Positions 1,594 to 22,461 are shown, counted from the first letter of the stretch. The stretch: DNA of 24,000 nucleotides from Nitrospirota bacterium (GCA_963818475.1 CAWFSF010000005.1:555873-579872), one strand, 5' to 3'. Notes: a model not told the origin generated them from the sequence alone. Numbers and translations: made by a program.

Positions 1594-1688
1594 CATTTGA
1601 CACGTAAGGACGGTTAAGCATACGGATACACACGACCAATTGTCAACCTGATCAAATTAAACTGTTTCCGTTTTACGCGGTGTAAGTG
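1594..1688. repeat. Degenerate copy of the intergenic palindromic element family (E1)
   Basis: The left end AAAAAAGCATTTGACAC is almost identical to the left end of the 8101 copy (AAAAAAGCATTTGGACAC). The right end GCGGTGTAAGTG is a decayed inverse of it. The interior carries ACGGATA / CGGTTAAG motifs. Confidence 0.4.
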
Positions 1689-1750
1689 GGATATGGCAGT
1701 GAATTCGGTTCGGTGATAGGGCGCATGGCCGGACAGGCGGAGGCGCCTGA

Positions 1751-2461
1751 TCAGAACAAACGGGAAAGCAGGGCGGGCACAGCGGTCTCGACGTTCAGGA
1801 TCCGCTGTCCGAGGCTTACCAGCGTACATCCAGCAGCCCTCAGTTTTTCGATCTCATAGGGGATAAAACCTCCCTCAGGCCCGATGATAAGGGTCGCGGC
1901 CCCGCTGAGGCCGCGGGGACAGGGCGCGTCTGCCGCCGGGTGCGCCACCAGGGGGGCGGTATTCCGGATCAGGACGGGAAGCTCGTCCTCCACAAAAGGC
2001 TTGAACTGACGCCGGAGCATGACGGCGGGAAGGACCGTATCGCGTGCCTGCTCCAGGCCGAGCGCCAGCTGTTCGTTGATCGCCTCCTGCTCAAGGAAGG
2101 GGCTCTGCCAGAAGCTCTTTTCCACGCGGAAGCAGTTGAGCAGCATGATCCGCTTCACCCCGAGCGTTGCTGCGGACCGGAGCACGCGCCGCAGCACCTT
2201 GGGCCGCGGCAGCGCCAGGATGAGCGTTGCAGGAAGCGGCACCGGCGGCGCCTGATCCAATCGCACGTCCATTTCAAGGACCGCATCATCGAGCGCCGTC
2301 ACTCTGCCAATGCCGATGTTCCCGTTCAAAAGCCCGACGCAGAGCTCGTCGTTGACGGACACGCGCAGAACCTCCCGCACGTGCCTGAGGCGGCGGCCGG
2401 TGAGCCGCACGCGGCCGGTGGTATCAATAAAGTCTTCTTTAAAAAGGAGGATGAGATTCAT
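1751..2461 (-). CDS. rsmE: 16S rRNA (uracil1498-N3)-methyltransferase RsmE
   Basis: The 236-aa ORF has the RsmE pattern. The N-terminal PUA-like part is MNLILLFKEDF...GRVRLTGRRLRHVREVLRV. The C-terminal SPOUT part is LIIGPEGGF..YEIEKL...G...VSLGQRILNVETA. Confidence 0.9.
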   Translation of the reverse strand: MNLILLFKEDFIDTTGRVRLTGRRLRHVREVLRVSVNDELCVGLLNGNIGIGRVTALDDAVLEMDVRLDQAPPVPLPATLILALPRPKVLRRVLRSAATLGVKRIMLLNCFRVEKSFWQSPFLEQEAINEQLALGLEQARDTVLPAVMLRRQFKPFVEDELPVLIRNTAPLVAHPAADAPCPRGLSGAATLIIGPEGGFIPYEIEKLRAAGCTLVSLGQRILNVETAVPALLSRLF

Positions 2462-2465
2462 GGTT

Positions 2466-2559
2466 CAAGATGCAAGATTCATGATGCATGATGGCAACTC
2501 AGAACCGAGCTGTTGGATTTCTTTTACCGATGTAAGTCCTGCATCCTGCATCCTCTTCC
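2466..2559. repeat. Possible variant of the palindromic intergenic element (E2), built from GATGCA / TGCATC units
   Basis: The left arm contains GATGCAAGATTCATGATGCATGATGG. The right arm contains CCTGCATCCTGCATCC, the inverse complement of tandem GGATGCA units. It fills the rsmE-arfB gap. Confidence 0.3.
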
Positions 2560-2569
2560 CTGCCCCCTA

Positions 2570-2989
2570 TCACTCAGAATATGCCGCGCTCCGCATCTTC
2601 TTGACACTGCCCCGCTGCTTCTTAGCCTCGATGCGTTTTTCCTTCGACGCTTTTGACGGCTTGGTCTTTTTTCGCGGCTTCGGCCGCTCCGTTGCTTTCC
2701 GGATCAGCTCCACGAGCCGTGCGATGGCGTCTTCGCGGTTCCGCTCCTGGGTGCGGTGCTGCCGCGCCTCGATGATGAGGATGCCTTCCTGCGTGATGCG
2801 CCTGCCTGCCAGACGGATCAGGCGCGTCCGCACATCCCCGGGAAGGGAGGGCGAATTGCCCACATCGAACCGGAGCTGCACTGCCGTTGAGACCTTGTTC
2901 ACGTTCTGGCCGCCCGGGCCCGAGGCCCGGATGAACTGCAGCTCGATCTCGCGCTCTTCAAGCGCTATGTTCCGCGTCACCTGGATCAT
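2570..2989 (-). CDS. arfB: Alternative ribosome-rescue factor ArfB (YaeJ-type peptidyl-tRNA hydrolase)
   Basis: The GGQ motif is present in RASGPGGQNVNKVSTAVQLRFD, followed by a Lys/Arg-rich C-terminal tail. I chose the start at internal Met48 of the 186-aa ORF (MIQVTRNIALE...), which is preceded by a GGAGGA Shine-Dalgarno. The upstream part of the ORF runs through repeat E3. Confidence 0.9.
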   Translation of the reverse strand: MIQVTRNIALEEREIELQFIRASGPGGQNVNKVSTAVQLRFDVGNSPSLPGDVRTRLIRLAGRRITQEGILIIEARQHRTQERNREDAIARLVELIRKATERPKPRKKTKPSKASKEKRIEAKKQRGSVKKMRSAAYSE

Positions 2990-3034
2990 GTTCCTCCTGC
3001 GATATCTCTGTTCGAATAAGATTGAAAAGAGCAG

Positions 3035-21095: not shown

Positions 21096-21248
21096 GGCGG
21101 GGATTATAGCATTATCTCCTCAGCGGAGAAATAGAATTATGCATATTACCAAACCAGCAGGGCTATCTATCCGACTATTATACGCATTTTCGGTTTTTCC
21201 CTGCTGCATGACCTTGCAAATTTTACTGTCTCAGGCCTTCATTCTCTA

Positions 21249-21277
21249 TTGCCAAACCAGTGCCATAGATTTATAAT
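21249..21277 (+). promoter_or_regulatory. Putative sigma70 promoter of the PP-loop ATPase gene
   Basis: TTGCCA (21249-21254), a 17-nt spacer, then a consensus TATAAT (21272-21277). Confidence 0.55.
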
Positions 21278-21310
21278 GCGGCGTCAATTTTGACAAGGGG
21301 GATCCGGCGG

Positions 21311-22309
21311 GTGAACAAAAAAGCAGTGGCTCTCATCTCGGGCGGCCTGGACAGCATCTTGGCCGCAAAGGTCGTCATGGACCAGGGCTTTGATATCATC
21401 GGGCTCTACTGTACGTCGGCCTTTTCCAAAAGCTACGGGAACGAGCAGGAGACCCATGCGGTCAAGGTGTCACGGGCACTCGGGATCGACCTTCGCATCT
21501 TCGACATGGGGCAGGAGTACATCGAACTCGTGCGCCGGCCTGCGCACGGATACGGCAAGAACACCAATCCCTGCATCGACTGCAAGATCTTCATGCTGAA
21601 AAAAGCACGGAGCCTCATGGATGACGTGGGAGCCCCCTTCGTGGTCACCGGCGAGGTGCTGGGGCAGCGGCCCATGTCGCAGCGCCGCGACACCCTGCAG
21701 GTGATCGAGCGGGATGCCGACATGCGCGGCCTGATCCTGCGGCCCCTTTCCGCCACGCTCTTGCCGCCCACCAAAGCGGAGCTGGCCGGCCAGATCGACC
21801 GGGAAAAGCTGCTCAGCATCAGCGGCCGCTCCCGGAACGTGCAGCTGCGGCTTGCCGAGCGGTACGGCATCCGCGGCTACTCGGCGCCTGCGGGCGGCTG
21901 CCTGCTCACGGACAAGAACTTTTCCGACAAACTGCGGGACCTTTTTGAGGACAAGGCGGCCATTGACCCGAACGATATCCGGCTGCTCACCGTGGGCCGC
22001 CACTTCAGGATCGACACCGGCGTCAAGATCGTCGTGGGCCGCGACAATGCAGAGAACAACGTCCTGCTCTCGCTTGCACCGCACGGCTACCATCTGTTCA
22101 CACCGCATGATTTTTCAGGACCGGTGGCGCTTTTGAGCGGCACGCCTACGCCGGACCTCAAACAGGCCGTCGGCAGGCTCATGATCACCTACAGCAAGCA
22201 GGTGCCGGGCCAGACCAGGCGCATCCAGTTCGCCAATGAGGTCTTCGACCCGGGCGATCCGCTGCCGATATCAACGGTCGGCATGAGACGGGTCGGCGCG
22301 GACAGTTAA
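21311..22309 (+). CDS. PP-loop ATP pyrophosphatase, ThiI/MnmA-like tRNA sulfurtransferase family (no THUMP domain)
   Basis: The PP-loop SGGLDS is present in KAVALISGGLDSILAAKVV. Other motifs are NPCIDCK and VVTGEVLGQRPMSQRRDTL...LRPLSA. I chose the start at GTG 21311, after an AAGGGGGA Shine-Dalgarno. The ORF-track start at 21290 is a TTG. Confidence 0.8.
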   Translation: MNKKAVALISGGLDSILAAKVVMDQGFDIIGLYCTSAFSKSYGNEQETHAVKVSRALGIDLRIFDMGQEYIELVRRPAHGYGKNTNPCIDCKIFMLKKARSLMDDVGAPFVVTGEVLGQRPMSQRRDTLQVIERDADMRGLILRPLSATLLPPTKAELAGQIDREKLLSISGRSRNVQLRLAERYGIRGYSAPAGGCLLTDKNFSDKLRDLFEDKAAIDPNDIRLLTVGRHFRIDTGVKIVVGRDNAENNVLLSLAPHGYHLFTPHDFSGPVALLSGTPTPDLKQAVGRLMITYSKQVPGQTRRIQFANEVFDPGDPLPISTVGMRRVGADS

Positions 22310-22328
22310 GCTGCGCTGCCGTTTTTTT
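22294..22328 (+). terminator. Probable Rho-independent terminator after the PP-loop ATPase gene
   Basis: An imperfect GC-rich hairpin CGGCGCGGACAG-ttaag-CTGCGCTGCCG overlaps the stop codon and is followed by TTTTTTT (22322-22328). Confidence 0.5.
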
Positions 22329-22374
22329 CCTCTTTGCTTTCCTCCTCATAACGGAACTGCTCAGGTCAGTATCC

Positions 22375-22461
22375 TATCCGCAGATTTCGCTGATTTCACC
22401 GATTAAAACAGGCCAGACTTGTGTTTCTAAGATCTGCGGACATCTGAGAAATCTGCGGATA
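22375..22461. repeat. Palindromic intergenic element (E10)
   Basis: The left arm TATCCGCAGATTTCGCTGATTTCACCGATT pairs with the right arm AAGATCTGCGGACATCTGAGAAATCTGCGGATA. The outermost 14 bp are perfectly inverted. Confidence 0.65.

Follow-up and report, generated by a model that had tools for sequence, protein, structure and literature searches.

What are the palindromic sequences that occupy so many of the gaps between genes in a stretch of 24,000 nucleotides from a Nitrospirota bacterium (GCA_963818475.1, CAWFSF010000005.1:555873-579872; the whole stretch is called the window here, and positions are counted from its first letter)? An earlier note, made from this DNA alone, had described at least ten fold-backs of a common plan, had taken them for one very dense family of the REP/BIME (repetitive extragenic palindromic/bacterial interspersed mosaic element) or MITE (miniature transposable element with inverted repeats) kind, and had read the matching arms of each copy as a sign of selection on the structure. 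Our answer is that most of the palindromic intergenic sequences in the window are very probably MITEs, that is, non-autonomous DNA transposons which insert at AT-rich sites and duplicate 5 bp of their target. They carry the signature of a transposon with a staggered 5-bp cut and they encode nothing, therefore we regard them as MITEs.

Target duplications and empty sites

Perfect 5-bp duplications flank five copies (TTTAT three times, TTCCT and ATGAA), and three more copies have flanks that agree at 4 of the 5 positions, so the target-site duplications that the earlier note had proposed to look for are indeed present. In the window, TTTAT stands on both sides of 12112-12267 (12107-12111 and 12268-12272) and of 10198-10335 (10193-10197 and 10336-10340), TTCCT encloses 22344-22508 (22339-22343 and 22509-22513), and matches of 4/5 are seen around 8090-8250 (ATGAC/TTGAC) and around 3020-3190 (AATAA/AATGA). 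The others belong to copies in unrelated contexts:

L141, 1709-1872: flanks ATGAA / ATGAA, 5/5.
L098, 7332-7496, the inner element of a nested pair: flanks TTTAT / TTTAT, 5/5.
L098, 4373-4547: flanks ATAAA / AAAAA, 4/5.

The boundaries of these copies were set from the CCT/AGG end motif and not from the duplications, except for 10198-10335 and 3020-3190, whose left ends are non-canonical. An AT-rich 5-bp target is duplicated on insertion, and TTTAT is preferred. That TTTAT is a part of the element itself was ruled out by ATGAA and TTCCT at other copies and by the single pentamer at empty sites.

The empty sites were found in syntenic relatives taken from other samples, in which the flanks of the elements are 87-95% identical. 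These relatives are L001 (ArfB 92% identical; nucleotide identity 88-95% across window positions 1-12084), L083 (ArfB 91% identical), L208 (thiouridylase-like protein 94% identical), L209 and L210 (88%), and L211-L215 (PNPOx 86-88% identical). The nearest ArfB relatives are uncultured Nitrospirota; a scan of genome contigs with ArfB gave mostly distant phyla, and its sole Nitrospirota match, L003, shows no synteny in the regions of the elements. A pattern scan of metagenomes with CATTTGGACACNGAT gave further copies, which lie in unrelated contexts (L098, L099, L141, L132, L152, L205 and others); it matched at least 120 loci, and among the 120 matches listed about 105 were due to chance agreement with the 14-mer and 13 were true elements.

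Where the window has the copy at 10198-10335, L001 reads ...ctggatTTTATccgcagc with exactly one TTTAT, and this copy is present only in the window among 5 genomes (absent from L001, L211, L214 and L215). Likewise, the site of 22344-22508 reads ...ccgtgTTCCTgcc in L208, with exactly one TTCCT; the copy is absent from L208, L209 and L210, and L208 has an element of the CTGAAGG type elsewhere in the same gap. The copy at 3020-3190 (element A) is shared by the window and L001, in which it is 94.7% identical, and absent from L083, where the empty site is ...ACATTGGAGCAGG. The neighbouring copy at 3322-3462 (element B) is found in the window and in L083, there with an internal 15-nt duplication, and is absent from L001. 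The fold-back at 8755-8892 is present in three of six genomes (window, L211 and L213) and absent in L001, and L214 and L215 have a GCGAAGCAATC-type palindrome at this site instead. Finally, one insertion is nested: in L098 an element with CACAGAG units (7332-7496) lies within an element with CACGGAT units and has its own TTTAT duplication. The MITE half of the first description is therefore borne out by duplications, empty sites and insertion polymorphism among close relatives.

The copies in the window are the following:

12112-12267, 156 nt: the best-preserved copy of the main family, CCTTAAAAC...GTTTTTAGG, with central hairpin TTCACCCAATAGGTGAA.
8089-8250: another full copy of this subfamily, in the gap that separates pepF from the PNPOx-like gene, C(C)TTTAAAAAAG...GGTTTTTAGA.
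3020-3190, 171 nt: element A, with CGCAGAT units, 30 nt upstream of the arfB start codon.
3322-3462: element B, within the 3' untranslated region of the gene for acyl-CoA synthetase, where it separates the stop codon (3478) from the gene's own terminator (3258-3283).
10198-10335, 138 nt: a copy with CACAAAA units, whose right end ...CTGTGGCTAACCGCTGTAGG is that of the CACAGAG-unit subfamily of L098.
22344-22508, 165 nt: the full extent of a copy at first placed at 22375-22461, CCTCATAACGG...TTTTTTTAGA, with inner inverted repeat TATCCGCAGATTTC.
19509-19830: a composite element, relative of 22344-22508, with which it has in common the left flank tgctcaRgtcagYat and the inner repeat TTATCCGCWGATT.
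8755-8892: a fold-back whose units are CACTGA(A/T) and whose outer repeat is CCACG.AGACAC / GTGTCT..CGTGG, without canonical CCT ends or clear duplication.
1512-1690: an old degenerate element common to L001 and L083, left end CTTGAAAAGGCAGTTGACAGGGATCACTGCGGATAAG (CCTGAAAAGAGCAGTTGACACCGATC in L083).
2462-2569: a different kind of repeat, in which GATGCA/TGCATC heptamer runs flank a spacer; it abuts the rsmE start codon and has no canonical ends.

The left arm of 12112-12267 has four GGAT(A/T)A units spaced by 10-11 bp. In the gap between pepF and the PNPOx-like gene, L001 and L211 have a GGGAGGGG-type palindrome and L214 yet another one. The palindrome of element B reaches GAAACCGAAG.../...CTTTCGGTTTC, and a clean duplication is not visible. 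The composite element is truncated at its right end, which abuts the stop codon of the next gene, and a small palindrome of a different type (about 19601-19684; ...GCGAGCGGAGCGAAGCAATCTC...GAGATTGCCGCGTCGCTTCGCTCCTCG...) is nested at its centre; across 84 nt this palindrome shows 85.7% identity with a sequence inserted between the outer-membrane protein and PNPOx genes of L214.

The old element at 1512-1690 is interrupted by a solo end of about 50 nt that is specific to the window (about 1584-1637; CCGAAAAAAGCATTTGACACGTAAGGACGG...), and the whole is not a fold-back. A promoter-like pair, TTGACA, 18 nt, TATGCT, lies at 1617-1646 on the minus strand and faces the histidine kinase gene. Its -10 is within the window-specific solo end and its -35 in the older shared sequence, therefore the insertion may have created or altered a promoter. 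As for the gap of 2462-2569, L083 has the same type of repeat and L001 a CTGAAGG-type element. In L083 (2309-2440, against window 2462-2500), upstream of rsmE, there are extra 14-nt tandem units (ATGAATCTTGAATC), including a copy of the rsmE start-codon region; therefore this gap evolves by tandem-repeat expansion too.

Architecture of the main family

The ends of the elements were located by aligning the outer flanks of all copies, and they lie outside the TTTGGACAC of the first reading. They read CCT(T/A)(A/G)AAAA-N-GCAnTTGGACAC (or ...GCAGTTnAGCCAC), with ...TTTT(T)AGG or AGA on the mirror side, so that GCAnTTGGACAC or GCAGTTnAGCCAC forms a conserved subterminal block just inside the ends. 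Hence the TTTG(G)ACAC taken for the terminus is subterminal and the true ends are 10-30 nt further out. The terminal inverted repeats are CCT(T/A)AAAA..GGACAC / GTGTCC..TTTT(T)AGG, and a single end profile fits both ends of a copy.

Between these ends the main family is uniform in length (138-175 nt; the composite element has 322 nt). Each arm holds three to five units of the consensus C-R-C-N-G-A-T-W-W at a spacing of 9-11 bp, among them CACGGAT, CGCAGAT, CACTGAT and GGCGGAT. The earlier note had reported that the unit differs from copy to copy; this is so, but mostly these are variants of the single motif C-R-C-N-G-A-T. The arms are AT-rich (37-45% G+C), the elements as a whole have 37-48% G+C in a window of 56%, and no notable open reading frame is present in them.

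At the centre of many copies there is a small hairpin, TTCACC...GGTGAA. Its stem, in either order of TTCACC/GGTGAA, was located at 8163-8181, 12186-12204, 3116-3133 and, in L098, about 7420-7440; it is kept across several subfamilies and is invariant in four aligned copies. In 8089-8250 the central hairpin is followed by a T-rich tract and scores as a weak terminator downstream of pepF. In another pair of loci, L084 has a run of N at 2849-3070 exactly where the near-identical L085 (5127-5300) has a family element (TTTTTTGCCACGGA...TCCGTGGTAAAAAAA), and this run is probably either a scaffold gap due to the repeat or a masked stretch.

Folding and density

Each fold-back was compared with 200 dinucleotide shuffles. 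We used these fold z-scores because a strict einverted-style aligner missed most elements, whose arms are imperfect and out of register. The values were -5.0 (3025-3174), -4.3 (3310-3459), -3.3 (8095-8244), -2.0 as DNA and -3.7 as minus-strand RNA (8755-8892), -3.7 (10200-10325), -6.9 (12112-12261), -2.8 (19520-19810) and -4.0 (22365-22470). Seven control stretches were taken from gaps, or from sections of gaps, in which no element had been listed; their z ranged from -0.2 to -2.1, bar one at -3.2 that holds an ordinary terminator. Thus, eight of the ten places at first counted as fold-back copies fold far better than their shuffles and the other two do not, namely 1594-1688 (z +1.1 and +0.3) and 2466-2559 (z -0.1 and -0.75), the latter being of the different, tandem-repeat-rich type.

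Regarding the density, the unit C-N-GAT-W-W occurs 11.9 times per kb in intergenic against 1.5 times per kb in coding DNA, which is an eight-fold enrichment, and the window has 11 ends of the TTTGRACAC type, whereas 1.33 Mb of unrelated genomes gave a frequency of about 0.5 per 24 kb (about 20-fold). The elements total 1680 nt and so account for 7% of the window and for 39% of the DNA between its genes. Of the 16 gaps that measure 70 bp or more, 9 have an element, and thus not nearly every gap, as had been thought at first. No coding sequence is interrupted by any of them, which agrees with the first observation.

One family or several

All these copies had been attributed to one family. However, a profile built from 13 element ends recognises in the window 8090, 8240, 12112, 12267, 1512, 3023, 3189, 3336, 3440 and 1587, and misses the copies at 8785, 10206, 19537, 22375 and 2466. 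The two ends of 12112-12267 match with E 8e-14 and 6e-12, both ends of element B with E 1e-4 and 3e-3, and the ends at 1512 and 1587 with E 7e-8 and 0.012, respectively. A full-length profile (A1) came from four aligned full copies (12112, window 8089, L141 and L099), which have 89% mean column identity in differing contexts. It finds, at full length, element A, its L001 orthologue and L098 4373-4547; the L001 copy of element A has E 6e-6 and the window copy 0.009-0.016. In 1.47 Mb of unselected loci all 23 matches to the end profile were within about 0.13 Mb of Nitrospirota loci, and there was no match in 1.33 Mb from other phyla. The copies 22344-22508 and 10198-10335 are too divergent for the end profile and keep the canonical ends and the duplication (the left end of 10198 being non-canonical). 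We conclude that the elements of the window belong to at least four to six MITE families.

Other palindromes share the same gaps. The CTGAAGG type was found in the arfB/rsmE gap of L001 and again in the thiouridylase/APH gap of L208, the GCGAAGCAATC type at the centre of 19509-19830 and inserted in the gap between the outer-membrane protein and PNPOx genes of L214 and L215, the GGGAGGGG type in L001 and L211, and the CTTTGCG type in L152 and L208. Therefore, copies of the same plan with a different motif, whose arms change together, are independent insertions of different families or subfamilies, sometimes in the same gap. We rejected a rapid concerted evolution of both arms at one site, for which GATGCA against CTGAAGG in the arfB/rsmE gap was the case in question, because the CTGAAGG element recurs in another gap of another genome.

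The small palindrome nested at 19601-19684, GTCATTGCGAG..GCGAAGCAATC / GATTGCTTCGC..CTCGCAATGAC, recurs in L004, L013, L018, L070, L122, L214 and L215. These recurrences include contigs labelled Bradyrhizobium, Alphaproteobacteria, Deltaproteobacteria and Chloroflexi, a strikingly wide range for a short non-coding repeat, and a literature search on its sequence gave no match.

A similar plan and similar ends were seen in a Betaproteobacteria metagenome-assembled genome (L080) and in the unrelated metagenome contigs L098, L101, L122, L125 and L126. Such likeness in contigs of other lineages suggests a much wider, hitherto undescribed superfamily of bacterial fold-back MITEs, with the Nitrospirota copies as one of its branches and with phased arrays of 7-11-nt units, co-evolving with an IS1380/piggyBac-like transposase, although we consider this rather doubtful. 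The units of such a superfamily (CACGGAT, CGCAGAT, CACAGAG, CACAAAA, possibly CGCAAAG) would be modular binding or bending sites, and the conserved TTCACC...GGTGAA hairpin and the conservation of element A would then hint at a secondary use by the host.

The presumed mobilising enzyme

In the mechanism that we propose, a DDE transposase supplied in trans would move the elements. The units, at 9-11 bp and thus on one face of the helix, would be subterminal transposase-binding or DNA-bending sites, and the two arms of a copy would match because a single enzyme has to recognise both ends. Differences in the unit between copies may reflect descent from different master elements. The intergenic location is presumably due to the preference for AT-rich pentamers in a genome of 56% G+C together with selection against insertions that disrupt genes.

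The IS1380 family is the best candidate for the source of this enzyme, judged by the CC ends and the AT-rich duplications of 4-5 bp; since the autonomous partner was not found, we consider the assignment about evenly balanced. Among the families of bacterial insertion sequences in the ISfinder table, only IS1380 is known to combine CC ends with duplications of 4-5 bp. In piggyBac transposons, the eukaryotic relatives in terms of IS1380 transposases, the terminal motif CCCTAGAAAG resembles CCTAGAAAAAG, and subterminal repeats and an AT-rich target (TTAA) are likewise present. They differ in being eukaryotic, in duplicating the 4-bp TTAA and in excising precisely. The best-known member of the IS1380 family is ISEcp1. 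Its left inverted repeat is CCTAGATTCTACGT, and the direct repeats that it makes are AT-rich and 5 bp long (PMC6061673). Some copies of our elements begin with CCTAGAAAAAG, whose first six bases, CCTAGA, are the start of that inverted repeat, so that CC ends, a CCTAGA start in some copies and 5-bp AT-rich duplications are in common. However, ISEcp1 measures about 1.6 kb against 138-175 nt here, our elements have no gene for a transposase, the search for a full-length partner gave none, and the phased 7-10-nt units, three to five per arm, that are found here are not known from ISEcp1.

One DDE transposase was examined as a partner, the one beside L214, and it was discarded because it is an IS1182 fragment with unrelated ends.

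Alternative explanations

Some observations weigh against our interpretation. A search for a transposase with matching ends gave none, whether in the window, in fetched loci of about 2 Mb altogether, or in the collections of plasmids (blastn) and of viral contigs (pattern scan), and the contigs that bear elements have only housekeeping open reading frames. Phased subterminal repeats with a 5-bp duplication are also a hallmark of Mu, Tn7 and Tn402, though these have TG...CA ends. Element B, 8755-8892 and 2462-2569 are without canonical ends or duplication. Furthermore, element A is 94.7% identical between the window and L001, which is like coding DNA (88-95%) and above other intergenic DNA (77-88%), and this leaves room for host-level constraint or gene conversion.

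The alternative that survives best keeps the MITEs and changes the enzyme: they would be moved by a transposase of the Mu/Tn7/Tn402 or the Tn3 type, and the phased units would be multiple transposase-binding sites. A 5-bp duplication is common to all four, the ends of Mu, Tn7 and Tn402 also have several subterminal transposase-binding repeats, as in the three to five per arm at 9-11 bp here, and MITEs derived from Tn3 (TIMEs) are documented. But our elements end in CC(T)...(A)GG, with CCT...AGG in full, and not in the TG...CA of Mu, Tn7 and Tn402 or in the GGGG...CCCC of Tn3. Their units of 7-10 nt are short beside the 19-22-nt sites of these transposons (19-38 nt when the repeats of the TIMEs are counted with them), and no such transposase was seen in the fetched loci. 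We consider this explanation unlikely.

Still less likely, in our opinion, is that the fold-backs are mainly structures selected by the host, which would stabilise, process or terminate mRNA, form cruciforms or bind proteins as DNA, and whose arms would co-vary. The folds are strong (z -3 to -7), most copies lie within transcription units (in 3' untranslated regions and between co-directional genes), element A is more conserved than the neighbouring intergenic DNA outside elements, and the TTCACC...GGTGAA hairpin is invariant in four copies. Nevertheless, copies are gained and lost at orthologous sites between genomes that are 87-95% identical, other families substitute for them in the gaps, and the target duplications show that they arrived by transposition. 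The covariation of the arms, which had been put forward as evidence of selection on the fold, was not recovered: none of 35 predicted pairs is compensatory in the four-copy alignment (covariation term +0.69), a comparison of low power with four sequences, and the best folds use different registers in homologous copies. Therefore, the matched arms are those of inverted-repeat transposon ends and not of a selected structure. The genes also retain their own canonical terminators: those at 3258-3283, 6044-6071 and 13898-13923 are all outside the elements, which speaks against the elements as terminators, and the weak central hairpin at 8163-8181 is the one terminator-like structure within an element. 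Individual copies may have been co-opted by the host, element A being as conserved as coding DNA.

We also rejected a reading of the ACACGGAU units as a CsrA sponge, because their GGA is buried in the stem and other subfamilies have no GGA. In Rfam there was no match in any element, and the only match in the window past threshold was the cspA thermoregulator.

The other half of the first description, on which a REP-associated tyrosine transposase (RAYT) would have spread the copies as REP/BIME or REPIN elements, is very improbable. The elements recall REPs, BIMEs and REPINs in being dense, intergenic, palindromic and located within operons, and the inverted pairs of units recall REPIN doublets. 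However, REPs are G+C-rich hairpins of 20-40 nt with a conserved head, moved by an HUH enzyme, and such enzymes are not known to make a target duplication, whereas here direct repeats of 7-10 nt lie in AT-rich arms (37-45% G+C) of elements of 138-175 nt flanked by 5-bp duplications. No RAYT/Y1 transposase was found in the window or among the called genes of the fetched relatives' loci, whose Pfam calls include no Y1_Tnp.

Finally, it is hardly credible that a host DNA-binding protein uses the elements as arrays of sites (relaxed DnaA boxes, or sites of IHF or a nucleoid protein), or that they are ordinary terminators or chance palindromes: TTATCCGCA is one mismatch off TTATCCACA and the units are helically phased, but the consensus TTATNCACA has a single match in the 24 kb, at 8565 and within a coding sequence, the TTATCCG units lie dispersed in mobile copies scattered over 20 kb, hairpins with T-runs lie outside the elements bar the weak one at 8163-8181, and folds and end motifs are far above chance.

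Neighbouring genes

The window has 56% G+C and about 21 genes, mostly on the minus strand:

Left part: histidine kinase, rsmE, arfB, acyl-CoA synthetase, tpx, and cspA with the Rfam 5' untranslated region.
Middle: pepF, PNPOx-like, outer-membrane protein, ferredoxin, CdhD-like and MazE/AbrB-like genes.
Right part: transporter/porin block, EamA, PHP-like, tRNA thiouridylase-like and APH-like kinase genes.

The Rfam model of the cspA thermoregulator covers the whole cspA region with its 5' untranslated region (5735-6145, minus strand; 79.1 against a gathering threshold of 78 bits). The tpx gene (5219-5716) is cleanly gone from L001, which retains the upstream sequence and the first ~37 nt and resumes past the stop codon.

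Compared with L001, the window has many single-base insertions that break the frames of the otherwise conserved acyl-CoA synthetase, pepF and CdhD-like genes (3645, 4839, 6278, 6348, 6830, 6865, 7206, 7968, 10660 and 10826). Homopolymers are not their sole location. They look like assembly errors or a very recent pseudogenisation.

A block of 7.7 kb at 12081-19830 comprises an FtsX-like permease, a 751-aa repeat protein, a 148-aa protein, a porin and EamA. Its edges are the elements 12112-12267 and 19509-19830. The block is swapped in relatives, L208 having a different gene set of 2.9 kb and L001 yet other genes, and its junction on the MazE side is a variable hot spot, where L214 has the IS1182 fragment. 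The gene of the 751-aa protein (13949-16204) has a 78-bp tandem repeat at 15924-16070 (1.9 copies, 88% identical) and, by eye, two internal repeats of about 1 kb (e.g. around 13990 and 14995).

Significance of the elements

As selfish DNA the elements are of a kind already known, and they do not represent a new regulatory structure. In the literature that could be searched we met with neither this family nor any MITE of Nitrospirota, whereas bacterial MITEs as such are familiar (Correia, RUP, ERIC, Nezha, TIMEs). Correia elements (Neisseria), RUP (Streptococcus pneumoniae) and ERIC/IRU are non-coding fold-backs of 100-170 nt with inverted-repeat ends and a target duplication, which are intergenic, often co-transcribed and polymorphic between strains. 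The elements described here have no sequence similarity to any of the three; they duplicate 5 bp against the TA of Correia and RUP, and unlike all of them they have tandem phased units in the arms and several coexisting subfamilies with different units. They are notable for how densely they lie, for the phased tandem arrangement of their units, and because several subfamilies occur together with unrelated small palindromes in the same gaps.

As around 40% of the intergenic DNA of the window is debris of mobile elements, it should be masked in these Nitrospirota genomes before promoters, small RNAs, terminators or "conserved" hairpins are predicted. The elements also explain why assemblies break and why spurious short open reading frames turn up in metagenome-assembled genomes of this sort. 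Their copies are good markers of very recent divergence, because their presence differs between genomes that are about 90% identical, and they mark gaps prone to recombination, as the element-bounded 12081-19830 (7.7 kb), which is replaced in two relatives. If the link to IS1380 is true, they would offer many naturally occurring non-autonomous partners of a little-understood transposase family that also mobilises resistance genes (ISEcp1), and a ready series of end variants for the study of end recognition.

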